A program made the translations under genes and the position numbers. Below, piece after piece: positions 9,111-51,354 of a DNA stretch of 64,000 bases. Source of the stretch: an uncultured Rickettsiales bacterium. Lineage in GTDB: Bacteria; Pseudomonadota; Alphaproteobacteria; Rickettsiales; JABCZZ01. A model generated the notes under the pieces. It saw nothing but the letters and a program-made list of their open reading frames with translations, searched no databases and was not told the origin of the DNA. Each line of letters opens with the position of its first letter. Position 1 is the stretch's first letter. Where the stretch lies: NCBI GenBank assembly GCA_964454545.1, contig CAYVTI010000003.1:6676-70675 (forward strand), in the 5' to 3' direction.

Positions 9111-9121
9111 CGGCGGAACCT

Positions 9122-12625: not shown

Positions 12626-12636
12626 ATTCGCTTTTT

Positions 12637-16369: not shown

Positions 16370-16446
16370 CGAGTAAGGAGTCGCGAATTGCGCGGGTATG
16401 TGGAGGAGCGTTAGCGACGCCCCCTTGCAATAAAGAATAATCCTAT

Positions 16447-33970: not shown

Positions 33971-34534
33971 TTACGGCAACATGCGCTGGATCTCCTGCTC
34001 TTTATCTATAAACTGGTGCTTGAGCACCGCCAGGATATGCAATGCAAGGAGTGCGTACAGCAGATAGCCGAACAGGGTATGCGCCTGTCCGAACAAGGTG
34101 TGCAACGCTTCCTTTCTGGCCGCATCTTCCATATAGTGAAAATAGCCAATGCGCGGCCAGGGAATCAGGCCGAAGAGCCGCATCGGGTGCGCTGCCGCAT
34201 CTTTCCAGGCGGAATCGTGCATCCATCCGGACAGAGGCAAAGCCAGCATCAGCAGATATAACAGGAGGTGCGCCGCATGCGCGCTGGCTCTCTCCCAACG
34301 CCGGTATGAGTCAGGCAGCGGCGGGGGCCTATGCGATATCCGCCAGAGAATACGGAGCATAACCAGGCCGAGCACGGTTATCCCGATGGATTTGTGCGTA
34401 TCAATCACGGTGCGTATCCACGCATCCGGAAATGAATCGGCTAATGTCCCCAGCGCCAGGTTAACCAGAATCAAAAGTGCAACCAGCCAGTGCAGAATTA
34501 TAGCTGTTTTCGTATACCGGGTATGTTCGCTCAT
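33971..34534 (-). CDS. Cytochrome b561 family protein
   Basis: YTKTAIILHWLVALLIL..HKSIGITVLGL..four TM segments with conserved His residues. Start ATG 34534 is preferred (ORF opens at 34552). Confidence 0.75.
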   Translation of the reverse strand: MSEHTRYTKTAIILHWLVALLILVNLALGTLADSFPDAWIRTVIDTHKSIGITVLGLVMLRILWRISHRPPPLPDSYRRWERASAHAAHLLLYLLMLALPLSGWMHDSAWKDAAAHPMRLFGLIPWPRIGYFHYMEDAARKEALHTLFGQAHTLFGYLLYALLALHILAVLKHQFIDKEQEIQRMLP

Positions 34535-34698
34535 ATGGGCATATAGCTTCAATCTGTCTGGACATTCAACGGGATATGAATTACACAGGCAATATAGTGT
34601 AAGTTAACTCTCATTGCTAGGCTAATAATCCCCGTTTGACAGCCTTACCGAACTTAGTCCTTTACGCTTCATCACCCCGGCTTTCGCCGCCTGCCGCT

Positions 34699-36096
34699 AT
34701 GCCATTGCGCAGCAGGATCATTCACGGCAGCGTTCTGGCACTGTGGATCGCGCTGCTCTGCATGGCCTTTATGCGGAACAGCGTTTTTGCCTGGTCCGTC
34801 GGCCTTGCCTATATCGGTTACGACACGCTGCTGCTTGCCTTCGTCTTCGTGCAGACCCTGAGCCTGCTGAAGACAAGCCCACCTCCGCCTGCGGGAGTCC
34901 GCAGCACGGTAAGCGTTGTGGTTGCGGTGTATAATGAAGCGGAAATTCTGCCGGCTAATATTGAGGCGCTTCTTAAGCAATCGGATCCTCCTGACCACAT
35001 CATTATTGCCGATGACGGATCGACGGATGCTACTTCCGAAATATTAGCCGGGCGCTATGGCATACAGGTCCCGGCATACGGAGAGATTAGCCCGCCCGGT
35101 TCCCTGTACCCATCCTTGCGCTGGCTGCGCCTGCCGCATGGCGGAAAAGCCAGAACGCTGAACAGCGCGATTTCCTTCGTCAGCACGGATGTCGTTCTGA
35201 CGGTGGATGGCGATACGCTGCTGGATAGAGAAGCTATAGGGGCAGTGCGGCGCGCCTTTTCGTCTGATGCCGATCTGGCCGCCGTGACCGGCGTGCTCAT
35301 TCCGGTTTGCAGCGGTTCGCTGGCCGGGAAATGCTTTCAATTCTTCCAGACCTATGAATATATCCGCAACTTCATTTCGCGTTACGCATGGATGCGCAAG
35401 GATAGCTTATTGCTGGTATCCGGCGCTTTTGCCGGTTTCCGCAGGGATGCGCTGGTTGCAGCAGGGGGCTTCGATCCGGACTGCCTGGTGGAGGATTATG
35501 AATTAATTCACCGGCTGCACCGCTATAGTGCCCTGCACCGGCTGCCGTGGCGGATTCGCGTTCTTGGCGAAGCGCGTGCGCTGACCCATGCCCCGAGCAG
35601 CATAAGCGCATTCCTGCGCCAGCGGCGGCGGTGGTTCGGAGGTTTTCTGCAAACGCATTACTGGTACCGTGATATGGTGGGCAACGCGTTCTACGGCTCT
35701 CTTGGAACGCGGATGCTTCCGGTGAAAGCTGTCGACACGCTACAGCCTGTCTACGGCCTTACGGCGTTCATTCTCCTGATAGGTTTTCTGGCCACAGGCA
35801 GGTCCAGCATTCTTATCCCGGTGGCCGCCGCGATGGGCGTCAAGATCGCAATTGATCTCGCGTTTCATGTGTGGTCCGTCCACCTGTACAGGCGGTGGGT
35901 GGGCAACGTTACCCGGGTCAACTTTATCAGGGCATTAGTGTCGGCTGTCGCCGAGCCGTTCACCTTTCAGATATTACGCCATCTCGGGGCTGTCTGGGGA
36001 TGGGCGTCCATTCTCACCGGGCACTGGGACGCCTGGGGAAAACAGAGCCGTGCGGACGCTCAGGCAGGACTCATTCACAGCCGGATTATTCGTTAA
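34699..36096 (+). CDS. Processive family-2 glycosyltransferase (PgaC/NodC/cellulose-synthase-like), membrane-embedded
   Basis: Motifs VSVVVAVYNE, ADDGSTD, VDGDTLL, VEDYEL and QRRRW, with TM segments at both ends. The ORF opens at TTG 34636. The stop codon overlaps the pelG stop (36093-36096). Confidence 0.75.
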   Translation: MPLRSRIIHGSVLALWIALLCMAFMRNSVFAWSVGLAYIGYDTLLLAFVFVQTLSLLKTSPPPPAGVRSTVSVVVAVYNEAEILPANIEALLKQSDPPDHIIIADDGSTDATSEILAGRYGIQVPAYGEISPPGSLYPSLRWLRLPHGGKARTLNSAISFVSTDVVLTVDGDTLLDREAIGAVRRAFSSDADLAAVTGVLIPVCSGSLAGKCFQFFQTYEYIRNFISRYAWMRKDSLLLVSGAFAGFRRDALVAAGGFDPDCLVEDYELIHRLHRYSALHRLPWRIRVLGEARALTHAPSSISAFLRQRRRWFGGFLQTHYWYRDMVGNAFYGSLGTRMLPVKAVDTLQPVYGLTAFILLIGFLATGRSSILIPVAAAMGVKIAIDLAFHVWSVHLYRRWVGNVTRVNFIRALVSAVAEPFTFQILRHLGAVWGWASILTGHWDAWGKQSRADAQAGLIHSRIIR

Positions 36097-37481
36097 GCCA
36101 CCTTCAGCGAATTGTTGTTCGTGATGAACGCATGGTACGGCAGGTTGCGCAAGTGGGCGAACAGCGCAATCGTCGTCGTCACGAAGATGACGAGCGACGC
36201 GGCAAAATAGCCGTATCCGTAATAAGGGAAGCCGAGATCGATGGTGAACAGGGTAAACACCGAGTTGGAAACCAGGAACATGCCCTGGATCCACAGGGTT
36301 ATCCTGCGGCAGTCGAAATAGGAGAGGATAATCAGCTCGAACAGCGTGAGCACATGGAAGAAGGCGCCGAGCGTCCCGAGACGGAAGATCCCGATCTGCA
36401 GATAATTGATGTCGAACATCTCAAACAGCTTTGAAGCAGTGAGGATGGAAACCAGCGTGATGGCGCCCTGCACCACGAAGAAATTACGCGAGCTTTCAAG
36501 CAGGGTCCTGATAATGTCCTGATGGTTCTTCCTTATGGTTATGAGCGGCTTATGGGCGAGGATGTCTTCATAGAAACGCTGGTATTTCGTAAAAAAGTTG
36601 GTTTCGATGCTGAAAATAAATATCGCCATGGCGGGCACGATGGTGAGATAGGCGAGGAACATCGCGCTGTCGTAATTGGGATAATAGGTCATTTTGCTGG
36701 GCAGCGTGACGGCTTCCGGCGCGAACATCCACATCAACCATTTATCAGCCCAGATGGCGGCGTTGTACAGGCAGCCGCTCACCGCGAGTTCCCAATACTT
36801 GATGAAATACTGGTGCAGGCTGGTGTTACTTACGAGCCTGTACGGATATTCGGCGAAGACTTTGCCGATAAGCGAGAATGCGATCCATGTGACACCGATA
36901 TTAAAGCCGTTTAACATCCCGACCGCGCCGTAATCAAACTTGAACAGGTAGCTGAAAATGATGGCAAGCAGCATGCCGACGCCAAACGCACGGCTTACGG
37001 TTTTATAGTCCTTGAGCGCCGTCATATAGACGCCGAGCAGCCAGACGGAGGAAATCAGGAACAGGTTGATGATGGCGCTGAGCCGCATGCTCAGGTCCAT
37101 ATTGGTGTAGAAGCCGTAATAGAAGAACGCTACCGGCACCAGGATGCAGTAGAGCATGACCAGGCTGTCCAGCATCACTGTCGGGACGTTGGTGACATCC
37201 TTCCTATGGATGCAGTCGGCGAGATAACGGGTGATGACCATGTAGATAGGGGCGGAAAGCACCAGCGAGAAGCCGAAATTATATACTACCACGATGCGGA
37301 AGTTGACCAGCTGATCGATGGTGAAATAGTTGAGGAAGAGCAAGGAAATGCTGCCAAGCGCCAGCACGGTGAAGAGCCAGGGGCCGGTCGAGGCTATGGT
37401 GGCATGCACATACGCTCCCGCGATGCCCAATAGATCATCCTTGCCTGCAAGACGCTTCAGCTCGAACCCAATACCCGCCAT
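36093..37481 (-). CDS. pelG: Pel polysaccharide membrane protein PelG
   Basis: 462 aa with about 12 TM segments. N-terminus MAGIGFELKRL..LLGIAGAYVHATIASTGPW is typical of PelG. It is the last gene of a pelDEFG block. Confidence 0.8.
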   Translation of the reverse strand: MAGIGFELKRLAGKDDLLGIAGAYVHATIASTGPWLFTVLALGSISLLFLNYFTIDQLVNFRIVVVYNFGFSLVLSAPIYMVITRYLADCIHRKDVTNVPTVMLDSLVMLYCILVPVAFFYYGFYTNMDLSMRLSAIINLFLISSVWLLGVYMTALKDYKTVSRAFGVGMLLAIIFSYLFKFDYGAVGMLNGFNIGVTWIAFSLIGKVFAEYPYRLVSNTSLHQYFIKYWELAVSGCLYNAAIWADKWLMWMFAPEAVTLPSKMTYYPNYDSAMFLAYLTIVPAMAIFIFSIETNFFTKYQRFYEDILAHKPLITIRKNHQDIIRTLLESSRNFFVVQGAITLVSILTASKLFEMFDINYLQIGIFRLGTLGAFFHVLTLFELIILSYFDCRRITLWIQGMFLVSNSVFTLFTIDLGFPYYGYGYFAASLVIFVTTTIALFAHLRNLPYHAFITNNNSLKVA

Positions 37482-37487
37482 ATGCTG

Positions 37488-38978
37488 TTATCCTCTCCTC
37501 GTGCACTGCGCATATAGTTCCTTATATGCGACATATTGATCTTTCTTGCTGTAATAACTGGCAACACGCGTACGGATCGCATGCGAGCATTTTGCGTAGA
37601 ATTCCTTGTCGGTCAGCAGCTTGAAAACGCCTTCGGCGATCGCCCTCGGGTTGGAGGGGGAAACGACTATGCCGCCTGCGCCCAGCGCAGGGTCTTCATC
37701 CGGCTTGCCGAGAATCATCTCGCGACATGCGCCTACGTCGGTCGCGACGGTCGGAATGCCGCAGGCGCCGGCTTCCAGAATCGAGAGCGGCTGCGCCTCG
37801 CTTATGCTGCTCAGCACGACCACGTCTATTTCCGGCAGGTATTCCTTGATATCCACACGGCCGGTAAAGGTTACGGTTTTCTGCAGGGTAAAGTAATCCA
37901 CAATGGACTTGCATTCCTCGAAATATTCCGGATCTTCATCCGTCGGGCCCATGATGATGACGCGCAGGTCCGGCAGGGTGGCGCTTAAGGCGCCGATAGC
38001 GCGCAGGAAGTTCTTCACGTCCTTGATCGGAACCACGCGGCCTATGAGCGCCACGGTTGGCGTCGGATGGGGTCTTGGCTCAATTTTGCTGTAGATCCCG
38101 GTATCGATGCCGTTCGGGATGACGCGCATCTTGTCCGGATCGGCGCCATCGGCTGTCTGCGCTACCTGGTTGCCGGAGAACAGGGTGATGATGTGATCGC
38201 ACGCCTGATAGCAGATGCGCGAATAATTGGCGAAGGCCGTTCCCCACAGGTCTCGCAGGTTAAAGCGCGTGCGGTCTATTGTCATGGCGTTGGAAGAAGC
38301 GCCTTCCTCAAGCCAGTTCGCTGACGATATTTCCACGCGGCGCTCGTTGGTGTAAATGCCATGTTCCGTGAGAATCAGCGGACGTCCCGTCTTGATTTTC
38401 GCGCAGGCGCCGAGCAGCCCGGCATAGCCGGTGCTGAGCGCATGATAGCATTTCGCCTGCGGCAGATCCGCGATCATGAGCGTATAAAGTCCGCCCAACA
38501 CGGAACGCCAGGACCAGAAATAGTTGAGCAGGGAGCTTTGGGCGAAAGAGTTTTCGTACATGGACACCGTCAGATCCCATGCGGCTTCGCTGTCCAGCAT
38601 CACCTTCCTGCCGATGATGCCGTGATAAGGCTTTACCGTGTCCATAATCTGGCGGAAGTCGCGCAGCGAAGCCTTTTCCGTGGTGATATGGATAAGCGGG
38701 TTGCGCAACGTATCAAAAATCTTCCTGGCCTTAGGTTTTGGCAGGTCCTTGCCGATCGGCAGCTTGTGCAGGTGCAGCGTCGTCAGCCCTTTGACATTCT
38801 TGGGCAGCGTATAGCGCATTTTGGGATTTTCATCGCGCGGCAGGATGGCGATAACATGGAAGGCCAGATGAGCGTTCTCGCGAATCATCTCATGCGTCCA
38901 GGTGGATACGCCGCCGGCGACGTAGGGATAGCTTCCTTCAAGTATCAGGCAGACATCCACACTATCTTTTGCGCTCAT
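37488..38978 (-). CDS. pelF: Pel glycosyltransferase PelF (GT4)
   Basis: 496 aa. N-terminal VCLILEGSYPYVAGGVSTW motif and a C-terminal GT4 E-x7-E region (SISEAQPLSILEAGACGIP). Confidence 0.85.
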   Translation of the reverse strand: MSAKDSVDVCLILEGSYPYVAGGVSTWTHEMIRENAHLAFHVIAILPRDENPKMRYTLPKNVKGLTTLHLHKLPIGKDLPKPKARKIFDTLRNPLIHITTEKASLRDFRQIMDTVKPYHGIIGRKVMLDSEAAWDLTVSMYENSFAQSSLLNYFWSWRSVLGGLYTLMIADLPQAKCYHALSTGYAGLLGACAKIKTGRPLILTEHGIYTNERRVEISSANWLEEGASSNAMTIDRTRFNLRDLWGTAFANYSRICYQACDHIITLFSGNQVAQTADGADPDKMRVIPNGIDTGIYSKIEPRPHPTPTVALIGRVVPIKDVKNFLRAIGALSATLPDLRVIIMGPTDEDPEYFEECKSIVDYFTLQKTVTFTGRVDIKEYLPEIDVVVLSSISEAQPLSILEAGACGIPTVATDVGACREMILGKPDEDPALGAGGIVVSPSNPRAIAEGVFKLLTDKEFYAKCSHAIRTRVASYYSKKDQYVAYKELYAQCTRRG

Positions 38979-40153
38979 ACTTTATTTCCTGATAACTTAT
39001 TTCCTGCCCAGAGGGAGAGTGCTTCGCGCATTCCCGGATTTAAGGCGGCGGCCTGTATCGATACCGGCGGGAGGCTGGCGCGGTACCTGCGCAGATCGTC
39101 GTAACGGCCACAGGCGAAGAGCGCTTCGCTGTACCACAGGGATATGGAGTCCGAGGCATAACCGGCAGTGATGCACTGACGGAACCAATCGCATGCCTTG
39201 GTATATTCTTTCTCGCGCATCAGTATGCGACCGATGCGGTTGCGCGGCTCGATGTCCTGCGGCTGCATCTGGAGGTACTCATTGTAATATTCAAGCGCTT
39301 TCTGGCGGTTGAGCTGCTCACGGTCGAAATCGAGCAGGCCGGTATAGGCATAATTGTCATAATGCTCGGCAAGCGCCCAGGTGACCAGGTGATCCTTCGG
39401 ATGAAGGTTCTTTATCTCGGCCAGCTGCATCATGCGCTTCAGAAAGATGGATTCCACCTTGCTGATGCCGGTTGCGGCCATGACGCGGATGGTGTTGCTG
39501 CTGTCGCTGAGCGCCTTGCGGAACACGGGAGCGAAATTCGGATGGAAATGGGACGTGGCTTTGGCCAGCGCCTGGCGTTTCTGCACTTCGCTGCCGAACG
39601 ACAGTACGTCCATGAATGAAACCACGCTATAGGGAACGCTCGATTCATCGCGGCCGATGACGATGTCGTCATAGATACGCTGGGAAATGGTCTGCAGCTG
39701 CCTCGGGAAGATGCTTTCGAACCATTCCTCGAACGCGAGCGCGTGGCGGTTGCCCCACAGGTAGGTGAGAATGGACAGTACAGAGCCAGCGGCACCGAAC
39801 GGCCCGGTCATCATGACGGATATCAGCATGAGCCACATGAAGCGCGCTTCGGAGCCGCGTCTCATCAATACCGCAAATACGGCCAGTATCATTACGGTGA
39901 GCATATGCAGGAAGAGCCCTGCCAGCGGAGATATATTGTTCCTGATAATGCCATAGAGCAGAAAGAACTCCAGCGGCGTGATTATGAGGCTTGCCAGCAG
40001 GGTGACAAAGCCGCCGTTTTTTTCGCGTTGCAGATCATGGATGTCCGGTGTGGTAAGGTATTCGTCTACAGCTTTCGATGCTTCGTAAGCGGGAGATATT
40101 TTATTTGGTGCGTTTCTCATACACGGTCTGAACGGTAAAACTGAAATTTGCAT
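38975..40153 (-). CDS. pelE: PelE-like inner-membrane TPR protein
   Basis: TM segments in the N-terminal half and TPR-like repeats in the C-terminal half. It sits between pelD and pelF, with an ATGA overlap with the pelF start. The start is uncertain (40153 or 40120). Confidence 0.6.
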   Translation of the reverse strand: MQISVLPFRPCMRNAPNKISPAYEASKAVDEYLTTPDIHDLQREKNGGFVTLLASLIITPLEFFLLYGIIRNNISPLAGLFLHMLTVMILAVFAVLMRRGSEARFMWLMLISVMMTGPFGAAGSVLSILTYLWGNRHALAFEEWFESIFPRQLQTISQRIYDDIVIGRDESSVPYSVVSFMDVLSFGSEVQKRQALAKATSHFHPNFAPVFRKALSDSSNTIRVMAATGISKVESIFLKRMMQLAEIKNLHPKDHLVTWALAEHYDNYAYTGLLDFDREQLNRQKALEYYNEYLQMQPQDIEPRNRIGRILMREKEYTKACDWFRQCITAGYASDSISLWYSEALFACGRYDDLRRYRASLPPVSIQAAALNPGMREALSLWAGNKLSGNKV

Positions 40154-41474
40154 TCTTCAAAGATTTTTCGAGACTCTTATCAAGCGACTTGCGTATCTTA
40201 TCCACGACGATCTGTGCTCCCTGGCGGTTCGTTGTCGGCAACACGATGGAATATTCGTCGTTTGTTTCCTGGTGATCGAACGCCAGGTCGACTTTGCGCA
40301 GCACGTTATCTACCGATTCGGAAAGCACCCGTGCGATCTGCGAGCGCGTGCTATCGTCGAATTGCTGGGAATTGGTCAGCTTGATGGCGATCATCGATAC
40401 GTCAAAGCTGAGACGTTCCGCGAGCGAGCGCATATAGTCGGTATAGCGGGTGAAATAATTATAGGTAAACAGGTTGTGATCCGGGTTGATGATGCTTCCC
40501 TGCTTGGCAACCTGGTATTTATTGGCGTTGACGATGGACATGGTCGCCCAGTCGCATATCGATGCGAACGCTTCTATGTTGCTTAAATTCAGATCGGACA
40601 GGTTCATCCGTTCGATTTTCAGCATGCCGATGACCTGGCCGGATTCCTTGTCCAGCAGCGGTCCGGCGAGCACAGCCTGATCCGCGAGAATGCGTTCGTG
40701 ATCGCTGTTTGCGACGCAGAGCGTCTGCTGCCTGGCGACAATGGCCTGGTAGAGATTGCTGTCAGGGCCGAAGCTGCGTGTATATTCGTCTTCTTCTTGC
40801 CAGCCGTGCGTCATATCGACATCGAGACGGTTACCTAGCAGGCTGTAGACGGAAAACTGATCGGGTGAAAGCGATGCGCTGACCAGATCCCTGATGCCTT
40901 TTATGACGTCATTCGGACTCAGTGTCTCCATCGAGCGCGCCGCCTGGTAGGCCGCAATAGAGGAGCGCAGCTGGCCAGCCATGCGCAGTTCCAGCTGATC
41001 CTTCAGGGTTTTTACCCGCTGATAGGAGCCGGCGATGCTCTGCTCGCGTTCTTCTGATTCCTTCAGGCGGTTTTCCAGGGCGTTGCGTTCATTGATGTGC
41101 ATCATGCGCAGTTCCCCGAAGGCCACCGCTGACAGGATCCAGAGCAGCGGCAGTTTCAGCACGGAAAACATGTAGGCATATTCGTCCTGTGCGATGCTGT
41201 GATCCGGCATATTGCCGAACAGGAGCGCAATGCTGCAGGCGGAGGCGGCGATGATGCCTTCCCTGGTTCCGTACTTGCAGGAAATGAACAGCACGATTAG
41301 CCAGAACGGATGCGGATTGACGTCGAAGTAACGCGTCCGGTCAAACATGATGGAATCCAGAAGCAATAATATCACCAGCGATAGGATAATCTCCGCTACT
41401 GCCGAACTGCGCAGGCTGAAAACGGTCGGGCGTTCGGGCTGGGTGTAGGAGCGTGTTACTTCTAATGTCTGCAT
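40101..41474 (-). CDS. pelD: PelD-like c-di-GMP receptor (4 TM, coiled coil, GAF, degenerate GGDEF)
   Basis: 457 aa. It has N-terminal TM helices, a GAF-like middle region, and a C-terminal RKVD (RxxD I-site-like) followed by TNDEY where PelD carries its degenerate GGDEF motif. Confidence 0.7.
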   Translation of the reverse strand: MQTLEVTRSYTQPERPTVFSLRSSAVAEIILSLVILLLLDSIMFDRTRYFDVNPHPFWLIVLFISCKYGTREGIIAASACSIALLFGNMPDHSIAQDEYAYMFSVLKLPLLWILSAVAFGELRMMHINERNALENRLKESEEREQSIAGSYQRVKTLKDQLELRMAGQLRSSIAAYQAARSMETLSPNDVIKGIRDLVSASLSPDQFSVYSLLGNRLDVDMTHGWQEEDEYTRSFGPDSNLYQAIVARQQTLCVANSDHERILADQAVLAGPLLDKESGQVIGMLKIERMNLSDLNLSNIEAFASICDWATMSIVNANKYQVAKQGSIINPDHNLFTYNYFTRYTDYMRSLAERLSFDVSMIAIKLTNSQQFDDSTRSQIARVLSESVDNVLRKVDLAFDHQETNDEYSIVLPTTNRQGAQIVVDKIRKSLDKSLEKSLKNANFSFTVQTVYEKRTK

Positions 41475-41510
41475 ACGTGTGTTTCCATCGGGACTGATTT
41501 TACTGTGAAG

Positions 41511-42923
41511 TTAGAATCTGCACCGCAGGTACCCTCCTACGGTTGTCAGGTTATTCTGCGAATGCGCGCTGTCAATGCCGTGACTCGCACGCAGCTGCGC
41601 ATCCAGTATTTCGCCGAATTCATGGGTGAGCCTTCCTTCAAAGAGAGGCCCCCTGCCACCCAGGCGATCATACTGATACCCCGCCATCGCTTCCGCATAC
41701 GTGCTGGGATTGAAATCATAACCGACTTCGCCGAAGGGCGTATGTATTTCGCGCGAGAACAGATCCAGGAGACGCGTGTTGCCGCCGAGGGAATCTATGC
41801 TGCGTTTCTGGCTTTTGACATATTCCCCGTCTATGCTGTACCCGATATCGAAAAAGGGCTTGTGGTATTTCACTTCATCCACGATGCGGTATGTCATGCT
41901 GAAATCGCCCGTTATGCTATCGGCCACGTTGCTTGTTTTACGCAGGTTATAGCGGTTGACTCCCGCTCCGCCTTCCACGGTAAAATGGGCAGAGGGTTTT
42001 ATGGTATGGAGAACAGCCACCCTGTCGCGATTGGCGTCATCCAGCACGGCGTCCGGCAGTTCCCAGTAAGGGCGCTGGAATTCGCCGGTGAACTGCGTAA
42101 TGCCGAGCGGATTGAGGAAATTGTAATATAACCCGCCGCCCGCAGTGTCGTTGTTGCCGAATACGGACGCTTTGGCCAACTGGCCGTTCGCGGCGGAATA
42201 TTGCGCGAAGGCTTCACCTGCTTCCCTGTTGCCGTTGAAATCGCCAACCCTGCCGTCGGAAAGGCGTATATTCCTGCCCAAGGTATAGTTGTCTTTAACG
42301 CTGGCGCCTACCTGCACATGGGAGGTTGCGTTTATCAGGGCGCTTAATCCGCTTACATATTCCTTGGTGTCGCCGAATTTTATCCAGTCAAAATCCACCT
42401 GGGCGCCTTGCGCGTGCTGGCGGCGTATCTCTTTCTGGAGTTCAGTGATATCTTGATTCTCCGGAGACAGGGCGTGCGCCTGCTTAAGCAGTTCCAGAGC
42501 ATAAGGCCAGTTGCCGGCATAATTTTCAGCATTGGCGGCAAGTTGCAGCAGCTGGGGATCGTTCTTATCTTGCGCCAACAGGGAATCAAGAATCTTAGTG
42601 GCGTCATAAATATGGCCGGTTTCAAGATCCAGACGCGCATTCAGTTCTGAAAGCTGCTTATTGTTGCTATTGGGGCTGGGTTGCTCATTGTCCGGTTCGA
42701 TTGTGACCGGCTTCCCGCCGGACGACGTGCTGGAAGCATTAGCCTCATCCTGCTCCGATATGGCAAGCTGTTCATAGTGCACGGACGGATTATAGATACT
42801 CTCTGCGCTGTTGGTCGCATCGCCCGTGGCGCGCGCGCCGTATGCGGCAGTGGTGGACAAGAGTACGCAGATGCCTGCGGTCAGGTGGCGTTTCATGGCG
42901 GGGGATTTTATTGTATGTGTCAT
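41511..42923 (-). CDS. Outer-membrane beta-barrel protein with short N-terminal TPR region (equivalent to the PelB C-terminal porin part)
   Basis: Signal peptide MKRHLTAGICVLLSTTAAYG. TPR-like LLQLAANAENYAGNWPYALELLKQAHALSP. Alternating beta-strand pattern ending in a C-terminal ..YLRCRF. ATGA overlap with the upstream TPR gene. Confidence 0.6.
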   Translation of the reverse strand: MTHTIKSPAMKRHLTAGICVLLSTTAAYGARATGDATNSAESIYNPSVHYEQLAISEQDEANASSTSSGGKPVTIEPDNEQPSPNSNNKQLSELNARLDLETGHIYDATKILDSLLAQDKNDPQLLQLAANAENYAGNWPYALELLKQAHALSPENQDITELQKEIRRQHAQGAQVDFDWIKFGDTKEYVSGLSALINATSHVQVGASVKDNYTLGRNIRLSDGRVGDFNGNREAGEAFAQYSAANGQLAKASVFGNNDTAGGGLYYNFLNPLGITQFTGEFQRPYWELPDAVLDDANRDRVAVLHTIKPSAHFTVEGGAGVNRYNLRKTSNVADSITGDFSMTYRIVDEVKYHKPFFDIGYSIDGEYVKSQKRSIDSLGGNTRLLDLFSREIHTPFGEVGYDFNPSTYAEAMAGYQYDRLGGRGPLFEGRLTHEFGEILDAQLRASHGIDSAHSQNNLTTVGGYLRCRF

Positions 42924-45900
42924 TTTGATTCTCCTGTTGATTTAGTAAGTGCGTCTTGCACAGGAGCTTCATTCATAACTTCATCTTTTGCCAAATGCAA
43001 CTTGTTAGAATCTATATGGAATTTAAATTCCGGTAGTGTTACAATCAAAACGGCGTCATATCCGTCGCTTATATAGCTAACCCATGGTAAATCTTTTAAT
43101 TTCTTAATGTCCGACGTGGCAACCGGACGGGTGAAAGTGATCAGCAGTTCGTGATTATGCCTGAAAGTCGCAAGATTTTTTATGGGTGTAATCAGGCCCG
43201 GCAGATCCATCGATGTTAATAGCTTATGTTTTCCGCTTTGCCATCCCGGCATTCCGGCGATGACGGATCTGGCGTTGCCATAGTGACCGATCTCGATCAG
43301 GATATCAGCCATATTCTGGCGGATTTCCGGGTTCTGGGGATAATCCTGCAGGGCGGCATCAAGTGTTTTAATGCCTGCCGCCTCATCTCCTGCCCATATC
43401 TGGCTTTGGGCTTTTACCTTTATGTTTTCAGGGGTTTGCGGCACAGGGCTATTTTCCATGAGCGAAAGCGCCTTGCGGTAATACGGTTCCGCCACTTTCC
43501 TGTCCTGATCCTTACGCAGGGTTTCCGCGTAATAGAAATAGGCGAGATACGCTTTCGGATCATGGGTATCTTCAGGTTTATACTGATTAATATACTGCCC
43601 CAGGTATTTCCGGGCGGACGTATAATCCGCCTGCTCGAAAGCAGATATGCCGGTTTCGCGGAGCGCCATGTAATTTCCCGGCTCCAGCGCCGTTATTTCC
43701 TCATAGGCCTTGCGCGCATCGTCCCTCAGGCCGAAATCCTGTGCCATACTGGCGTATTTCTTCAGCAGTATAGTATTGCCCGTGCGCTTTGCCTCCCCGG
43801 CATAATAGGCGCTTTTTCCAGCCAGCTTGCCTTCTTCCGCCAGTGCCTCGAAATAGGTATCCGCTACTTCCGGCACCGCTATGGTTTCCGGATGGCGGGT
43901 TACAAAACCTTCCAGATATGCGGTGGAACCGGCATTGCCGATAAGCGCTGCCCAGAGCCTTTTTTCTGCAGGATTGAATTCTGCATTATAACGCCTTTCA
44001 AGCCATTCCACGCGCGTGGCCGCAGGCTTGGGCCCCCAGATATACATCAATTCGCTTACAGGCGTGCTTTTGGCGCCTGCATGTTCCGCAAGCTGCATGA
44101 ATACCGGCTCCGCGTCCGACTTGAACCCGTGATCGATAAGCACGTAGGCAATATCTTCCTTGTCCGCAGTGGCGGTTTTCGGATCGTTCAAGGCCTTCAC
44201 CCAGTAGGGGCGGGCTTCGTCATAGCGGCCTTTTTTATCCAGAAGCTGCGCATAGAGCATGGTCCATTCTCCTCCTGCCGCAAGCGCCTGCGCCTTGAAA
44301 TGCGGCAAGGCCAGACCGGTTTCATTCACGTCGATAAGCGCGTGCAGGACAGCAATCTTCTGCTTTTCCGACAGAGTGCCGGAATTAAGCTGCGTATTTG
44401 CGAATGTGACCAGTTCCTTGCGGTATTCTTTGCGCCAGGGCGCGAGTTTCACCAGGGCAGTCAGGTAAGTGTCCTCGTCTTCCGGCAGCATGTTGCCGCC
44501 GCTGATGCCGCGCAGGGTTTTTACCGCCTGCTCATATTGCTTTGCCGCCACATACGCAGCCGCAAGCAGGCTGCGTCCCAGCTCGCTTTCATACTTGCCG
44601 CGGAAAATTTGCGCCATATGCACGGCGGTGTTGAACCTGCTGTTATCATAGGCGGCATAGAACAGATCGGTCAGCAAATGCTCATTGACCATTTCCGGAT
44701 GCGTGTCGAGCCATGATTTTACTTCGCTGTCCTTACCCCGGGCAGCCTGCAATAATATATAAACATGTCCAATGGCCGGGGATTTATCACGGTTTTTTCC
44801 GGCACCGGCAATATAATTATAACCGTTGTCCGCTTCATGCAGCTGCAGGTATATGTCCCCGATGGTGGCGATTTCAGAATCAGAAAGTTGGCTCTGATCC
44901 GGCAGATTGGCAAGCAGGTGCGTTGCGCACAGGCTGCGGTTGAAGTGGGCGCATATATCCGCGATCTCCAGAGTCTGCTCGTGGGTGAAACCCAGCGTGT
45001 CAAGGCGCGACAGCAGTTCCGGCGCATCCTGATGCTGGCTGGCGACCGCAAGCGCCGCGGAGATAACCGGATACAGCTTGCGCGATTCCTCATCGCTGAA
45101 GCTCTGGTTGATACGGTTAAGCAGATCGCTGTCATCCTCGGTGATGGACATTTCAATGAGTTTCAATACGTCCTGTTCCGGCATGGTGTTAAGCGGTACG
45201 TCCTTCATCAGATCCTGCGAAAGCTCGGTTTCACCGCGTTCGACGGCAAGCAGCAACAAATTTCCCGCAAGCGCTGGCGGCAATTTCTTGTCTTTATGAA
45301 GCTTTTCCAGCCGCCTGAATATTGCATCATCGGCGTTTTCCGATAATTTCAGATAGATGTAGGCTTCCAGCAATTTGGGATTGGCGTCAATTTTGTCCTC
45401 ACTGTAGCGGCTCATGAGGTTTTCCGCCATAGCGGCGCTGCCTTTAAAATGCGCTATGTTGATGAGTTCGGCAGCTTCTTCGATATTATTGCTTTTATCA
45501 AGCCAGCTTTCCAAGGTTTTCTTAGCATCTTCCGGCTGCCTGTTATCAAACAACAGGGAAACCAACAGCACTTCATTGGCGAACGTGAAGTGTTCCGGAT
45601 CGGATTTCCGCAACTGGCTGAGCGTATCGATGGCCCCTGCATAGTCATGCCGCGAAGCCTGGATATTAGCCAGATCACTGAAATGTTTCGGATTTTTTCC
45701 TTTTTCCGCAGCAATCAGCTCCCTTAAGACCTGTGCTTGCTTGTCGTAATCGCCTTTGAAATTATATAAATAGGATAAATTGCTCAGATCGTTTGTATTG
45801 GGCCTTATCTTGTTGATTGCTTCCAGATTGTTCATGTACTGGTCCGTACGCTGGTCGTACTGGTAAAGCGTGCCGAGCTTGATTCTTGCCTCCAGGTTGC

Positions 45901-46171
45901 CGGGGTGAGCCGCCACGAATTTTTCCATGGTCTCAATCGCTTTATTTATATTGCCTTTCTGCAGGTACAGATCGCTTAAGTTATTAGCCACTTCCATATT
46001 AAGCGTGCCAGCCGCCAACTCTTTTTCATACGCCGCTCTGGCATCTTCAAAATGCTTGTCTTTCAGCTGCATCAACGCCAGTTCCTGTGAGCTAGGTATA
46101 AGGAAAAAACTTACAACTATGGCAATCAGCACCGGAGCCGCTATGATAAGATATTGTTTTCTTGGCAGCAT
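42920..46171 (-). CDS. pelB: PelB-like TPR scaffold protein (no porin domain)
   Basis: 1083 aa. N-terminal TM segment, then TPR repeats throughout, then a roughly 110-aa non-TPR tail. It sits between the pelA-like and pelD-like genes. Confidence 0.7.
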   Translation of the reverse strand: MLPRKQYLIIAAPVLIAIVVSFFLIPSSQELALMQLKDKHFEDARAAYEKELAAGTLNMEVANNLSDLYLQKGNINKAIETMEKFVAAHPGNLEARIKLGTLYQYDQRTDQYMNNLEAINKIRPNTNDLSNLSYLYNFKGDYDKQAQVLRELIAAEKGKNPKHFSDLANIQASRHDYAGAIDTLSQLRKSDPEHFTFANEVLLVSLLFDNRQPEDAKKTLESWLDKSNNIEEAAELINIAHFKGSAAMAENLMSRYSEDKIDANPKLLEAYIYLKLSENADDAIFRRLEKLHKDKKLPPALAGNLLLLAVERGETELSQDLMKDVPLNTMPEQDVLKLIEMSITEDDSDLLNRINQSFSDEESRKLYPVISAALAVASQHQDAPELLSRLDTLGFTHEQTLEIADICAHFNRSLCATHLLANLPDQSQLSDSEIATIGDIYLQLHEADNGYNYIAGAGKNRDKSPAIGHVYILLQAARGKDSEVKSWLDTHPEMVNEHLLTDLFYAAYDNSRFNTAVHMAQIFRGKYESELGRSLLAAAYVAAKQYEQAVKTLRGISGGNMLPEDEDTYLTALVKLAPWRKEYRKELVTFANTQLNSGTLSEKQKIAVLHALIDVNETGLALPHFKAQALAAGGEWTMLYAQLLDKKGRYDEARPYWVKALNDPKTATADKEDIAYVLIDHGFKSDAEPVFMQLAEHAGAKSTPVSELMYIWGPKPAATRVEWLERRYNAEFNPAEKRLWAALIGNAGSTAYLEGFVTRHPETIAVPEVADTYFEALAEEGKLAGKSAYYAGEAKRTGNTILLKKYASMAQDFGLRDDARKAYEEITALEPGNYMALRETGISAFEQADYTSARKYLGQYINQYKPEDTHDPKAYLAYFYYAETLRKDQDRKVAEPYYRKALSLMENSPVPQTPENIKVKAQSQIWAGDEAAGIKTLDAALQDYPQNPEIRQNMADILIEIGHYGNARSVIAGMPGWQSGKHKLLTSMDLPGLITPIKNLATFRHNHELLITFTRPVATSDIKKLKDLPWVSYISDGYDAVLIVTLPEFKFHIDSNKLHLAKDEVMNEAPVQDALTKSTGESK

Positions 46172-46271
46172 AATAACTTAGTTAATTATTATTAATAAGT
46201 CTAAAACGGCGAAGCGGAAAATAGCGGAAAAATATTTTTATTCAACCAGAAAAGTAAATCTTCTTTAACAA

Positions 46272-46302
46272 AACAACCTATGATTATGTAAATTAGGTTG
46301 TT
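46272..46302 (-). other. 9-bp inverted repeat in the pelA-pelB gap
   Basis: AACAACCTA (46272-46280) / TAGGTTGTT (46294-46302) with a 13-nt loop. Confidence 0.4.
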
Positions 46303-46442
46303 GCATGAAATATGGTTATACCAGTTTATGGATTGTATATCAATATATATCAGTAAGATAACGCGATAGACTGCTCGTACACGCAGATATTTATTTGATT
46401 CTCTCCGGGTTGCCCCCTCAGCTTGCCGCGCAAGAAATTGCC

Positions 46443-46463
46443 ATGCCGCACTTGTTGCGGCAT
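46443..46463 (-). other. 8-bp hairpin just downstream of the pelA-like gene
   Basis: ATGCCGCA-CTTGT-TGCGGCAT. On the operon strand it is preceded by GGCTGGATGCC, which resembles the GCTGGATGCC word and the adjacent hairpin of the 103-nt repeat. Confidence 0.4.
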
Positions 46464-46517
46464 CCAGCCTTGCAGTGGGGGTGTTTATAAGATCGAAAAC
46501 TTGCAACAGTAATGGCT

Positions 46518-48905
46518 TTATATACGGCGGATAGTGATTTCCAGTGGTTCTTCGGTCGCTTTATTCTTCAGGGAGAAGCTGATAAGTCCGTTGTTTCCCG
46601 CATGCACACGTGTCTGCAAAGACTTACCTTTCCTGTCACGGCTCGTTACCCGGTATTCCGCTCCGGCGTCGCCTTTCCATACCATGTTGCCCTTTCCATA
46701 TCCGTCGGCATCGAATTCTACATCGCCGCCATTGCGATGAAGGTTCTTTATTTTCCAGTTGCTCTGGACGAGATACATTTTTCCGCTTGCGTTCCGGCCT
46801 TTATGCACAACCATGTATATGTCCTCGGCGGCTGGGTCCAGCGCCACGTAAAGGCTATCGTTGAAAACATGCTGTCCCATGACGCCGCGCGAAGCATTGA
46901 AATCAATGCTCAGATCGGTGGCATCGTCAAAGCGTAAGGTCTCCAGGTTGCCGCGATTCTTAATGTGCCAGGCATGTTCACCCTCCGGAATGATCTCCGT
47001 AGTGTAGAACCCGTTAGCTATAGCAGCGTAATCGCTTGCGGTGATCGGGATGAGATCCTGCGTGCGCGCATAATCCAGATTGTCTTTGATAGCGCTAACC
47101 CCTGCTTCCTTTTGTCCGGAAAACATGTGGAAATAAAGATTGAACGGGCTGACGCGGATCGGCTTATTGGTATTTTCAACCGTGGCCTGGAGATATTTAT
47201 AACCATAGAATCGGTCAGTCCATTCGTCAGTATAGGTTTCTTCATTACTGTTGGAGGAGAATATCTGGCGTTCCTTGCCGATTTTTATGCCGATCGGCGC
47301 CACGAAGGAATAAGACGGATATTCGCCGTCGAAGCGTGAATCTCCCCCGTTAATATTAAGCAGGCCCGCCTTACGTGTCATCGCTATCGCGGCTTCAAAG
47401 GGGCTGGTATCGCCCGGCCATTGCAACAGGATAATCTTCTTGTCAGGCGGTGACAATCTTTTTACGGTTGCAACCGAGGTATAGATTTCCTGTTTCAGAT
47501 CGAACGGCGTGCAGGCGTAGCTGCGCGGCATGTAGCCGTACTCTTTTAATATTTCGTCTTCTGATTTTATCTTTTTATAAGGTAAAAGCTGATCCGTTTC
47601 CTTTTCGTTCTTGCTGGCTTCATGCGCATTGCCCAGCGAGGAGTCTACATGGATTTCCGGCCACCTGTCGTTATTATAAAGCACCTTGTTTTTTAACAGG
47701 CTGACAGCCGAAAATCTTTCTGCTGGCTTGAGCGGATAGTATTTAAGGTAAGGTTTTTCTTTTTCCGGCGTATAGTCTTCAAAGAAATGCCAGTACAAAG
47801 GGTGGCTGTAGGTATGGCTACTCGGCTCCACATTGGGCAGCGCAAAAATCCTGCGGGCGACGATTTCGCTGTCCGGCACGGCGAAGCAATCCGGATCGAC
47901 GTCTTCGCTAATTAGTCCGACGCTGAAGGCGAAATCCGGGTAATTCTTCAGTATTTCCCTGTAAATCACGTCCGCCGACAGGGTGCTTGTCTTATTATAT
48001 CGTTCTATTTCCGATATGTTGTTCCAGCCGTCGCCATCTATATGCGCGTAAAATATCCGTCGCCCGTCCAGGGTGGTGGTGTCAGGGATGGGGACGGTTT
48101 TGATATTGAGCGACCTGCTCAGGAACAGGAAGGGATTAATAATCCACTCGAATTCATCATCCTCTACTATTTTTGTTTCCTTGCCGGCTGAATGTTCCTT
48201 TATCTTCTTTTTTAAGGCTATTTCTTCGAGGAAGATATATCCTTGCGCGGCAAATCCGCCGTTAGGGCTGGTTATCACCATATCAAAATTCGCATTGTTA
48301 TCAGTTGAATCGCTGATATGCATCCGCAGATGGCTTACACTTTTGCTTCCCGGCAGGATGTGAAATCCGGGAATTTCAGGAAAGGGCGGTTTGAGTTTCC
48401 GCTCAAAGCCTACCATGCTTTTATCTATATAAGTAATTTCCGCATTATAGGTAAACTGGTTCCAGCCCGCGTCGTCCTGCACCCCTATATATCCCAGGAT
48501 TGCATTCCATGCCTGTATGATGTTGTGGTCTTTAAGATACGCCTTCTGAATACCGGGATCCCCCATGATTATCAGCTTCTTTCCCTGGCGGGTGATGTTT
48601 TTGAGCCAGTTCAGGTAGGCATGGATGTCGGGGACTTTAGTTCCCGGATTAAACCATATCACGACTCCTGCCACATCATCTCCCAATGCGGGAAGCGGTG
48701 AATGAATATCGTAGTAATTGATGTCATATCCCAGGTGATTGGCGGGCATTTCCAGAAAATTATGAATATTAGACGCTCTTGGGGTTGGCTCGACATGGCT
48801 GTCATAGAGGGCGGCAAGAATGCGGGCTACCGGCTTTTCTACGGCAAAACTGTTATAGGGCTGGAATAGGAGAAATAGGGCGGCGGTGAAAAATATCTTT
48901 TTCAT
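46518..48905 (-). CDS. pelA: PelA-like polysaccharide deacetylase, without a recognisable N-terminal hydrolase domain
   Basis: Signal peptide MKKIFFTAALFLLFQPYNSFA from ATG 48905 (ATGA overlap with the pelX stop). CE4-like HIDGDGW and SSHTYSHP motifs. None of the GYISLGE / DTxDS / NRGF hydrolase motifs is seen. Confidence 0.65.
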   Translation of the reverse strand: MKKIFFTAALFLLFQPYNSFAVEKPVARILAALYDSHVEPTPRASNIHNFLEMPANHLGYDINYYDIHSPLPALGDDVAGVVIWFNPGTKVPDIHAYLNWLKNITRQGKKLIIMGDPGIQKAYLKDHNIIQAWNAILGYIGVQDDAGWNQFTYNAEITYIDKSMVGFERKLKPPFPEIPGFHILPGSKSVSHLRMHISDSTDNNANFDMVITSPNGGFAAQGYIFLEEIALKKKIKEHSAGKETKIVEDDEFEWIINPFLFLSRSLNIKTVPIPDTTTLDGRRIFYAHIDGDGWNNISEIERYNKTSTLSADVIYREILKNYPDFAFSVGLISEDVDPDCFAVPDSEIVARRIFALPNVEPSSHTYSHPLYWHFFEDYTPEKEKPYLKYYPLKPAERFSAVSLLKNKVLYNNDRWPEIHVDSSLGNAHEASKNEKETDQLLPYKKIKSEDEILKEYGYMPRSYACTPFDLKQEIYTSVATVKRLSPPDKKIILLQWPGDTSPFEAAIAMTRKAGLLNINGGDSRFDGEYPSYSFVAPIGIKIGKERQIFSSNSNEETYTDEWTDRFYGYKYLQATVENTNKPIRVSPFNLYFHMFSGQKEAGVSAIKDNLDYARTQDLIPITASDYAAIANGFYTTEIIPEGEHAWHIKNRGNLETLRFDDATDLSIDFNASRGVMGQHVFNDSLYVALDPAAEDIYMVVHKGRNASGKMYLVQSNWKIKNLHRNGGDVEFDADGYGKGNMVWKGDAGAEYRVTSRDRKGKSLQTRVHAGNNGLISFSLKNKATEEPLEITIRRI

Positions 48906-49825
48906 AATGCCTTTAATGTCCATTCCAGGCCGTTTTGCAAAAGAGTGCTTGCGGTGAATCCTATCTCTCTCCGGCTTAATTCCGGGTTGCCAGCGGAGAA
49001 ACGTATGTCTCCCGCGCGTCTTTCACTGTAGGATATTGCGGATTCTGATCGGGTCACTGTGCGGATGATATGAGCCAGCTCGTTGATCGAGGTCTGTATG
49101 CCGGTGCAGAGGTTGTATACGCCGTAGCTGGTTTTCTTTTCCTCAAGCGCGCGTATGGCCATGAGAAGGCCGCGGGCGATGTCGCCGACATAGATGAAGT
49201 CGCGTGTCTGCAGGCCGTCGCCATATATGGTGACCGGCATGTGCCGCCTCATGCGGTTGGCGAAAATCGAAATCACACCGGAATAAGGGTTCGCGGGATC
49301 CTGCCTCGGGCCGTATACGTTGAAAAAGCGCAGGCCCGCGGCCGGTATGCCGTGTATGGTGTGGGCGATGCGCGCCTGCATCTCGCAGACAAGCTTGTCC
49401 ACTCCGTAAGCGGAAAGCGGCGAGCAGGGAACGGTTTCCTTAAGCGGGATGTCGGGGCAGTCGCCATAGGCGGCCGCCGAGGACGCGAATACGACTGGCA
49501 GGGGGCGCTTTTTCTTCACGAGCGCGTCAAACAGCGCTACCGCGCCGCTCTGATTGACCTGGTGGGTCCTGAGCCAGTTTTCCGCCGACTGCTGCACCGA
49601 GACGATGGCGGCGAGGTGGAAGCAGCCGTCAACGGACCCTATTATGGTGTCAAAGATGCCGGGTGTGGTGATGTCTTCCACTATAAGCTTTACATGCGAG
49701 GGGATGTTTTCGCGTTTCCCGGTTGAAAGATTATCGATGACGGTCACGCCGTGACCGTTCTTCAAAAGTAATTCCACTAAATGCGAGCCGATAAAGCCGC
49801 AACCGCCTGTGACCAGATAATGCAT
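48902..49825 (-). CDS. pelX: NAD-dependent sugar epimerase (PelX-like UDP-GlcNAc/UDP-Glc 4-epimerase, SDR family)
   Basis: MHYLVTGGCGFIGSH Rossmann motif and the YGVDK (YxxxK) motif. It is the first gene of the pel operon. Confidence 0.75.
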   Translation of the reverse strand: MHYLVTGGCGFIGSHLVELLLKNGHGVTVIDNLSTGKRENIPSHVKLIVEDITTPGIFDTIIGSVDGCFHLAAIVSVQQSAENWLRTHQVNQSGAVALFDALVKKKRPLPVVFASSAAAYGDCPDIPLKETVPCSPLSAYGVDKLVCEMQARIAHTIHGIPAAGLRFFNVYGPRQDPANPYSGVISIFANRMRRHMPVTIYGDGLQTRDFIYVGDIARGLLMAIRALEEKKTSYGVYNLCTGIQTSINELAHIIRTVTRSESAISYSERRAGDIRFSAGNPELSRREIGFTASTLLQNGLEWTLKAL

Positions 49826-50358: not shown

Positions 50359-50949
50359 TTACCGTCCGCTCGGTCCCACGATGAAGCGTGAGTTTTCAAG
50401 ACTGGCCTTACGGTCTTTTTCCACTTTCTGCGGATCAAAAAAGCCCATACGTTTTGTTCCGGTGTCACGCGCCGCAATATATACGCCCGCAGGTTGTGTG
50501 GCGATATTGGCGAGCGTGTAGCGTAGCGTTTCCACGCCGTCGCTTTCATGTTTCCTGTGCATGGAAAGCGGTACCATCGCGCCTGCAAATACTACCACTT
50601 TATCACCGTCTCCCAGCTCTGCCTGTAATGCGGTGGAGTTCTTTACCATGGCATCGGTGCCGTGGGTGATAACAAAAAACCTGTGATCATCCTCTTTTAT
50701 GAGTTTCGCGAGCGCTTGTATGTCATCCGGGGTAAAGAGCTGGCTGTCTTTGACAAAGCGATCTTCTTCCCACCTGCCCCAGGTAAAGCCGTCCACGTTC
50801 TTATGGTTAGGCATGGATGCCACTGCAGGCATGATAAGGCTTTTATCACCCTTTAGCGTATCCACAAACTTAGGAGGATTCTTCGGATCTGCGTAAGGTT
50901 CCGAATCTATCGTGCCGCCCGTGCGGATGAGCAGTATCCTGTTGTCCAT
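50359..50949 (-). CDS. Asparaginase-family (N-terminal domain only) protein
   Basis: 196 aa. LLIRTGGTIDS threonine motif and HGTDAM block. Confidence 0.7.
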   Translation of the reverse strand: MDNRILLIRTGGTIDSEPYADPKNPPKFVDTLKGDKSLIMPAVASMPNHKNVDGFTWGRWEEDRFVKDSQLFTPDDIQALAKLIKEDDHRFFVITHGTDAMVKNSTALQAELGDGDKVVVFAGAMVPLSMHRKHESDGVETLRYTLANIATQPAGVYIAARDTGTKRMGFFDPQKVEKDRKASLENSRFIVGPSGR

Positions 50950-51039
50950 ATTCCAAGCGCCAAATAATACTTCCGCATTATGCCTGAAATGCCAAATGGT
51001 TGCAATGGACTAATAGATCGAGCAACAAGAACAAAATAG

Positions 51040-51354
51040 TTAATTCACTGGATTTCTTAGAAAATAGAACCATACTGCCACCATCAGGTTGACCGATACC
51101 AGCAGTGTCGCCGCGACATGCCACGGCGTGAGGCTGGCGCCTTCGGCAAGTAGAATCGCGCCTGCCGGCCCGAACAGGCATATGACCGTGAAAACCACCA
51201 GCCAGCGCGCTTTCGCATGGGCGAAGTTCACTGTCCAGCCGAACGATGGATTAGGTTTTGGCACGATGATTCGCGGATCTTTCGCGCAGTTATAACCCCA
51301 TGCGTTCCAATGCGCCGGATCTTGCCATAACCTGTCGAATTGTTCAGGAGTCAT
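51040..51354 (-). CDS. Small membrane protein, DUF5808-like
   Basis: 104 aa. DPRIIVPKPNPSFGWTVNF followed by two TM segments. Confidence 0.5.
   Translation of the reverse strand: MTPEQFDRLWQDPAHWNAWGYNCAKDPRIIVPKPNPSFGWTVNFAHAKARWLVVFTVICLFGPAGAILLAEGASLTPWHVAATLLVSVNLMVAVWFYFLRNPVN

Follow-up and report, generated by a model that had tools for sequence, protein, structure and literature searches.

The 64,000-nucleotide stretch analyzed here (the window, from contig CAYVTI010000003.1 of an uncultured Rickettsiales bacterium) contains a pel locus at 36093-49825, in which eight co-directional genes on the minus strand, all with intact open reading frames (ORFs), follow the order X-A-B-D-E-F-G, with pelB divided into two genes. 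In our judgment this locus likely encodes a complete and probably functional Pel-type exopolysaccharide machine, of a subtype from Alphaproteobacteria that dispenses with the PelC ring. An earlier note on this DNA had assigned the genes to Pel and had listed four departures from pelABCDEFG, namely a leading epimerase, a PelA without the hydrolase, a two-gene PelB, and no PelC. The assignment is supported by profile, structure, and synteny evidence, and all four departures proved to be real.

For this genome, the analysis covered the 64-kb window and, for each relative, about 8-21 kb around the locus. The comparison set of 24 related loci (L numbers below) comprised 13 from metagenome-assembled genomes (MAGs) titled Rickettsiales or Alphaproteobacteria, the closer relatives L002 and L032, and a wider sample of nine.

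Gene content and the pelB-pelD junction

The eight genes, and the spacer that precedes the first pelB gene, are as follows (TPR, tetratricopeptide repeat; SDR, short-chain dehydrogenase/reductase).

48902-49825, minus strand: pelX, first gene of the locus, SDR UDP-sugar C4-epimerase (PF01370, Epimerase family, E 4e-54)
46518-48905 (longest ORF to 48923), minus strand: pelA_DA, periplasmic Pel deacetylase without a glycoside-hydrolase domain (phmmer match to 9cgy)
46172-46517, minus strand: AT-rich spacer of 346 bp and 37.0% GC between pelA and the TPR gene (read from the sequence)
42920-46171, minus strand: pelB-N, 1083-residue TPR scaffold of the periplasm, with a hydrophobic anchor at the N-terminus and a beta-rich domain near the C-terminus (matches to many TPR families)
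41511-42923, minus strand: pelB-C, 470-residue outer-membrane TPR and barrel protein with its own signal peptide (AlphaFold, Foldseek)
40101-41474, minus strand: pelD, membrane protein with GAF and degenerate GGDEF domains, putative cyclic di-GMP (c-di-GMP) receptor (GAF_3, E 1e-9)
38975-40153, minus strand: pelE, inner-membrane TPR protein (weak TPR matches and hydrophobic segments in the sequence)
37488-38978, minus strand: pelF, GT4 glycosyltransferase, the polymerase (NF038011 equivalog, 454 bits against a cut-off of 100)
36093-37481, minus strand: pelG, inner-membrane Pel export protein (PF16933, E 2e-112, 377 bits, positions 1-452 of 452)

The barrel gene and pelD are separated by 36 bp, a gap so short that no ORF fits between them, which bears out the earlier observation that no PelC-type ORF lies between pelB and pelD. 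A PelC query taken from the annotated Azospirillum locus (GNA1162 family) yielded 120 homologues from which a hidden Markov model (HMM) was built, and a control version was made without any beta- or gammaproteobacterial sequence. On control loci this version found PelC at the expected site in Azonexus (E 2.6e-24), Burkholderia thailandensis (7e-21), and Pseudoalteromonas (1.3e-19). The window and the 24 related loci (about 339 kb) were translated in all six frames, and neither single-sequence phmmer nor the HMM of 120-121 sequences detected a PelC in them, so that the check for a pelC in another frame or adjacent to the locus was negative in the window; the top score was an E-value of 0.13, inside a PelG. 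In all 22 loci with a visible junction, pelD directly follows pelB, the two genes either overlapping or standing up to 224 bp apart; the remaining cases are L029, where unrelated genes follow the barrel gene, and L013, which ends within pelB. In the PelC-bearing loci that we inspected, pelC always sits directly between pelB and pelD. Among the related loci examined in uncultured Alphaproteobacteria, PelC was found in none, and it is probably absent from the present genome as a whole.

The PelC ring has been termed an essential and unique hallmark of Gram-negative Pel export (PMC12141448), and earlier surveys of Gram-negative pel loci were queried with PelC (PMC7112168, PMC7890745). Since PelC was the query, diderm loci lacking pelC would have been hidden in those surveys, which indicates that PelC-seeded surveys undercount diderm pel loci. 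No description of a diderm locus with PelB and without PelC was found in a literature search that lacked most subscription journals.

The gene at the head of the operon had been called a PelX-like SDR epimerase, and beyond its PF01370 match, the closest solved relatives of its product are 6wjb/6wj9 (E 3e-63, residues 3-303, full length). These structures were deposited as NAD-dependent epimerase/dehydratase family protein, and we take them to be PelX of Pseudomonas protegens. The product is 75% identical to that of the first gene in the L032 locus.

For the PelA-like protein (801 residues), no match was found in Pfam or NCBIfam. By phmmer it matches solved PelA 9cgy (E 3e-50) over PelA residues ~259-852 only, so that the GH166 hydrolase domain, which makes up the N-terminal ~260-280 residues of full-length PelA, has no counterpart in the window protein (261-281 unmatched residues), as expected from the reported lack of hydrolase motifs. 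In an alignment of the window protein with 13 relatives, two of them full-length PelAs, the residues of the CE21 deacetylase are all kept (H288, D290, D292, H364, H368, E555, and H593, in the pattern H-x-D-x-D, H-x3-H, E, H), the roles of which in the PelA active site have been described (PMC12022489). Because the CE21 residues are kept and the GH166 domain has no counterpart, this PelA is a mono-functional PelA_DA, as in Gram-positive pel loci. The pelX/pelA overlap places its start at the ATG at 48905 and not at 48923, and a typical, cleavable-looking signal peptide, MKKIFFTAALFLLFQPYNSFA, begins at that start. An insertion of ~72 residues relative to 9cgy follows H-x3-H (residues ~380-451 in longest-ORF numbering, 47572-47787), where the alignment jumps from 379 to 452 in the query and only from 562 to 566 in the target.

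Among the synthesis proteins, PelF combines DUF3492 (PF11997, E 2e-76) with Glycos_transf_1. PelE is 34% identical to PelE of Azospirillum and weakly matches that of B. thailandensis (E 2e-6); translation probably begins at residue 12 of the longest ORF (ATG at 40120), from which PelE of L032 also aligns. In PelD, alignment with a solved diguanylate cyclase places RKVD (residues 393-396, nucleotides 40287-40298) on the RxxD inhibitory site and TNDEY (residues 404-408, nucleotides 40251-40265) on GGDEF, the two motifs that had been picked out from the sequence as RxxD-like and degenerate. The R and D of the RxxD site are invariant in 12 of 12 aligned relatives, including Azospirillum and Burkholderia.

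The two-piece PelB and its relatives

The split of PelB into a 1083-residue TPR protein and a 470-residue TPR and barrel protein joined by an ATGA overlap was confirmed, and the fold of the second piece matches PelB. The product of pelB-N begins with a 20-residue hydrophobic segment that has no obvious cleavage site and no lipobox; an uncleaved hydrophobic N-terminus of the same kind has been described for P. aeruginosa PelB (PelBC paper, PMC12141448). It is colinear with residues 1-~1060 of the fused 1450-residue PelBs of relatives and carries, before a disordered tail, a beta-beta-alpha-4-beta domain of ~70 residues (~993-1062; 42986-43195). In an AlphaFold model of residues 758-1083 (pLDDT 88), this beta domain is confidently modelled. 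According to a beta-domain HMM, it is present across the PelB subfamily, including Azospirillum, and lies between the TPR superhelix and the barrel linker, and it has no counterpart in P. aeruginosa PelB as described. Foldseek searches of the PDB with the beta domain returned matches dominated by TPR.

The AlphaFold model of pelB-C, built with seven homologues, shows a signal helix, a disordered linker of ~55 residues, five helices (~2.5 TPRs), and 16 long strands. Its best Foldseek match in the PDB is PelB in the cryo-electron microscopy structure of the PelBC complex (9h80_M, E 7e-11, TM 0.66), and the second best is BcsC. In relative P0008 and in most other relatives, both PelB parts lie in one ORF of 1450-1495 residues that is colinear with the window pair. 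The signal peptide of pelB-C is kept in seven homologues of 461-486 residues (45-56% identity), and the same cut point occurs in L002 (gap of 21 nt) and in the syntenic L032 (gap of 1 nt), where the window has its ATGA overlap. With its signal peptide conserved and its cut point shared by L002 and L032, the split cannot be put down to a frameshift artefact. In Azospirillum, L027, L028, L029, and L031, the beta-domain profile places the cut before the beta domain, as opposed to after it in the window group, and because the cut points differ in this way, PelB has been split at least twice in this subfamily. In L024 (MAG GCA_016200365.1, 5057-9239), PelB lies in three ORFs of 340, 640, and 412 residues, and the PelA homologue of the same locus matches DUF2194, a domain noted in Gram-positive PelA.

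The spacer upstream of the TPR gene is confined to the split-PelB group (346 bp in the window, 231 bp in L032, and 181 bp in L002), as compared with only 2-12 bp between pelA and pelB in the fused-PelB relatives. A block within it, AGGTTGTTTTGTTAAA...TTAATTTTCTAGTTGAATAAAA (about 46233-46279 in the window), is common to the window, L032, and L002, stands 60-110 nt upstream of the start codon, and is a candidate internal promoter or operator. The spacer had no match in Rfam. A 101-residue ORF with a TTG start in the spacer (46201-46506) was rejected as a gene: it belongs to no family, its translation is of low complexity, and it cannot be conserved since the L002 spacer measures 181 bp. Across the whole locus, Rfam returned no RNA family, and consensus scans for sigma-70 promoters and terminators gave matches at chance level only.

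Relatives of the barrel protein were numerous. A word-indexed search gave 10 matches and a full HMMER scan 618 cluster representatives, of which 225 reach E<=1e-30; fused proteins of ~1450 residues come closest, and stand-alone proteins of 400-550 residues are more distant. The barrel profile did not detect the canonical PelBs of Burkholderia, Azonexus, and Pseudoalteromonas, and it gave the Azospirillum barrel 148 bits. In the loci sampled, the layout without pelC is the norm of this large PelB subfamily and not peculiar to the present genome. Neither PelB nor PelC is present in two plasmid loci of Rhodobacterales, L018 (Cereibacter azotoformans) and L020 (Sulfitobacter), where pelF-pelG are accompanied by a Wza-type 'polysaccharide biosynthesis/export' gene, apparently a third way of exporting the product of a Pel-like synthase.

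ATGA overlaps at pelX/pelA, TPR/barrel, and pelE/pelF, as listed in the earlier note, were confirmed on the sequence. That note had also described the locus as looking more AT-rich than the neighbouring core genes, which would hint at a foreign origin. This claim fared less well, as the locus has 52.1% GC compared to 53.4% for the window, a shift of 1.3 points, and only pelA (48.1%), the TPR gene (50.5%), and the 346-bp spacer (37.0%) are lower. The closest relative, the syntenic L032, keeps this layout, its proteins being 56-85% identical, and has it between the same flanking genes, with a DLH hydrolase, an aldo-keto reductase, and an FMN oxidoreductase on one side and coaD, mazG, a GNAT acetyltransferase, and a protein of ~1580 residues on the other (the L032 copy of the latter matches large bacterial glutamate dehydrogenase families). 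A horizontally acquired AT-rich island was rejected on account of these conserved flanks and the small GC shift, and because L032 carries the locus between the same genes, it is an old chromosomal resident rather than a recent island.

Two segments are extra relative to L032. The first, 34149-36096 on the plus strand, holds a PgaC/IcaA-like GT2 gene (97 bits, below the cut-off), which is convergent with pelG and overlaps its stop codon by 4 bp, and a 152-residue ORF; the second, 50359-51354 on the minus strand, holds an N-terminal asparaginase fragment and a DUF5808 ORF. Apart from the hydrolase described below, no flanking gene that might belong to the Pel system is conserved among the relatives.

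A stand-alone hydrolase in a phage-like module

Although the PelA of the locus lacks the hydrolase domain, the hydrolase function is not missing from the genome, as a PelA-hydrolase homologue is encoded 36 kb from the pel locus.

9487-10320, plus strand: stand-alone PelA-type hydrolase (pelA_H-like) with an N-terminal membrane anchor or signal (PF03537, E 4e-21)

The best solved matches of this protein are to the PelA hydrolase domain (5tcb, E 4.5e-23, and 9cgy residues 6-247), which in P. aeruginosa is an alpha-1,4-N-acetylgalactosaminidase (PMC7890745). A gene for a secreted GH114/PelA_H protein of ~280 residues lies directly before pelA_DA, between pelX and pelA_DA, in 14 related loci (L004, L005, L007-L010, L015, L016, L023, L024, L027, L028, L030, and, as a deletion remnant, L003), and no PelA_H gene precedes pelA_DA in the window, L002, or L032. 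The window hydrolase is 43-46% identical to these locus-linked genes, about as similar as PelA_DA is to its counterparts in the same relatives. In L003 (5873-6803), what follows the start of pelA_H (62 residues) is just the final ~300 residues of PelA, the result of either an internal deletion or an assembly artefact, and some relatives may thus carry damaged loci.

The hydrolase gene is flanked by a 111-residue holin-like ORF with a C-terminal hydrophobic segment and by a phage lysozyme gene. Upstream are genes for DUF2460, Gp84_N with BR0599, NlpC/P60, and Phage-tail_3 with Rcc01698_C, then a tail-fibre gene, and such genes are typical of clusters like RcGTA, a gene transfer agent (GTA), or of phiJL001-like prophages. 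More broadly, window positions 1-16400, especially 9068-10836, have the appearance of a GTA-like or prophage tail and lysis module, including a GDSL/tail-fibre-like protein. Compared with a phage collection at the nucleotide level, the tail and lysis module had no match. The only phage matches to the hydrolase itself were weak and partial (25-27% identity over half the protein), to Pseudomonas phage SCYZ1 and Ralstonia phage phiRSL1 (MH518298.3, 35469-35885, and AB366653.2, 128407-128835), and relatives of both phage hosts have pel loci, e.g., Ralstonia solanacearum with its pelF. Since this putative Pel-cutting enzyme is encoded in a lysis cassette, it may serve as a matrix depolymerase during the release or entry of particles. 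Together, the cutting of PelB at two points within the subfamily, the separation of the PelA domains, and a hydrolase in a phage-like module make this a compact case of operon evolution.

Explanations and comparison with known systems

Taken together, the gene content is consistent with the following route for the polymer, in which we infer the contacts between the proteins and the activity of the machine. PelX would supply UDP-N-acetylgalactosamine (UDP-GalNAc), and PelF with the PelD-E-G complex would make and translocate a GalNAc-rich chain when switched on by c-di-GMP at the RxxD site of PelD. In the periplasm, the hydrolase-less PelA, probably docked on the long TPR protein, would deacetylate the chain, so that the product would presumably be a GalNAc-rich, partly deacetylated polymer. 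Anchored in the inner membrane through its hydrophobic N-terminus, the TPR protein would pass the chain on to the TPR and 16-strand barrel protein, which would be exported separately to the outer membrane. In needing no partner ring, that pore may resemble PgaA and BcsC, TPR-porins that are self-sufficient; the division of scaffold and pore between two proteins has its parallel in AlgK and AlgE. The stand-alone PelA-type hydrolase from the phage- or GTA-like lysis module could trim the chain or release the matrix.

Several points weigh against a machine that dispenses with PelC. PelC is reported to be essential in P. aeruginosa (PMC12141448), and Azospirillum, with the same PelB subfamily, keeps pelC, so that this type of PelB is not intrinsically incompatible with it. 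The searched DNA, amounting to a part of each genome, leaves room for an unlinked pelC. The barrel model is only moderately confident (mean pLDDT 62, about 75 in the folded part), the diderm envelope of these uncultured organisms is deduced from the presence of the barrel, and the machine itself is predicted from its genes. The first three of these points would equally favor a PelC or PelC-like lipoprotein still in use with its gene relocated outside the operon, as would the fact that the pelA_H of this genome has itself moved 36 kb from the locus. We nevertheless consider such a relocation unlikely given the empty junction in 22 of 22 visible loci, the lack of any PelC homologue in the 24 loci and the window, and the constant position of pelC between pelB and pelD in the loci that bear it. 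Replacement of PelC by a non-homologous part seems less probable still. The conserved beta domain between TPR superhelix and barrel, which the description of P. aeruginosa PelB does not include, was tried as a PelC analogue and rejected: it has no profile similarity to PelC (hhalign probability 0.2%), it is also found in PelC-bearing Azospirillum and its presence does not track PelC loss, and one domain per PelB cannot build a 12-mer ring. The window also holds an orphan, PelC-sized ORF of 165 residues with a good lipobox, LLVSAC (56241-56738, plus strand), but it is unlinked to the locus, belongs to no Pfam family, and resembles PelC at the lipobox only (probability 2.6%), and it was likewise rejected.

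Decay of the locus, in which a frameshift would have split PelB and deletions would have removed the hydrolase and PelC, is very improbable. L003, where a clear internal deletion has joined the beginning of pelA_H to the last part of pelA, gives this idea a precedent, but in the window none of the eight ORFs is broken and the catalytic and binding residues are kept, the split product has gained a conserved signal peptide and occurs in at least seven lineages at 45-56% identity, the junction geometry is that of translational coupling, and the layout is kept in L032. Scarcely credible, finally, is a different polysaccharide made by a merely Pel-like cluster. Speaking for it are the low identity of PelD and PelE to the Pseudomonas and Burkholderia proteins (only 21-23%), the absence of any blastp match for PelB, and the failure of the barrel profile to detect canonical PelB barrels, whereas the co-occurrence of a PelF equivalog, PelG, a PelX-type epimerase, a PelA deacetylase, and a PelA-type hydrolase, together with the activity of the P. 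aeruginosa hydrolase domain, points to a GalNAc polymer.

A Pel machine that exports without the PelC ring is thus the reading we prefer. We put at about an even chance a broader proposition with two parts, namely that a large diderm Pel branch, overlooked partly because early surveys were seeded with PelC, exports without the ring, making PelC a lineage-specific accessory rather than a hallmark, and that in this genome a GTA or prophage lysis module has taken over the hydrolase, so that turnover of the matrix would be tied to the release or entry of particles. Taken one by one, the deviations all have precedents, while a diderm PelB system without PelC appears to be undescribed in the literature searched.

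Compared to pelABCDEFG of P. aeruginosa, the window locus shares PelF, PelG, PelE, PelD (GAF and degenerate GGDEF with RxxD), the deacetylase chemistry of PelA, the TPR scaffold, the 16-strand PelB-type barrel, and the gene order A-B-D-E-F-G, and differs in having no PelC and no GH166 domain in PelA. P. aeruginosa PelB is one protein of 1193 residues, whereas the window has two proteins totalling 1553 residues with an extra beta domain. In P. protegens, the SDR epimerase PelX is reportedly encoded beside the pel genes, while its counterpart in the window opens the operon, with translational coupling to pelA.

PgaA (for poly-N-acetylglucosamine) and BcsC (for cellulose) likewise combine TPRs with a 16-strand barrel that exports without a lipoprotein ring, but these are single polypeptides in other synthase systems. 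In alginate export, scaffold and pore are on separate proteins, as here; AlgK is an outer-membrane lipoprotein and AlgE an 18-strand barrel, whereas the TPR protein of the window has no lipobox and the barrel model has 16 strands. Fission of pelB has been described in aquatic thermophiles (PMC7112194, Fig 5iii). It is an event independent of the split in the window, although there too scaffold and pore are separate proteins.

The Gram-positive pelDEA(DA)FG loci of Bacillus cereus and others resemble the window in their mono-functional PelA deacetylase, an associated epimerase gene, and the lack of PelC, and their pelA_H is a separate gene, sometimes unlinked or absent (PMC7112168, PMC7890745). 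They have no PelB and another gene order, while the window keeps the full TPR and barrel exporter, and their PelA is tethered by a transmembrane helix in place of the cleavable-looking signal peptide of the window protein.

A further comparison is provided by a plasmid locus of Azospirillum thermophilum (DEW08_RS24715-24670), known from its RefSeq annotation, for which no paper was found. It is colinear with the window locus gene by gene at 24-52% identity and also has a PelA without the hydrolase, a 1018-residue TPR protein, and a 526-residue TPR and barrel protein. Unlike the window, it carries a stand-alone polygalactosaminidase gene between pelX and pelA and a GNA1162-family PelC before pelD, and its PelB is cut before the beta domain, not after it. 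The non-canonical architecture noted earlier is real but is not peculiar to this genome, being the norm of a subfamily in which Azospirillum combines the split PelA and PelB with pelC. The occurrence within one subfamily of a PelB-type pore without PelC, in the sampled relatives, and with PelC, in Azospirillum, amounts to a natural experiment on the need for PelC.

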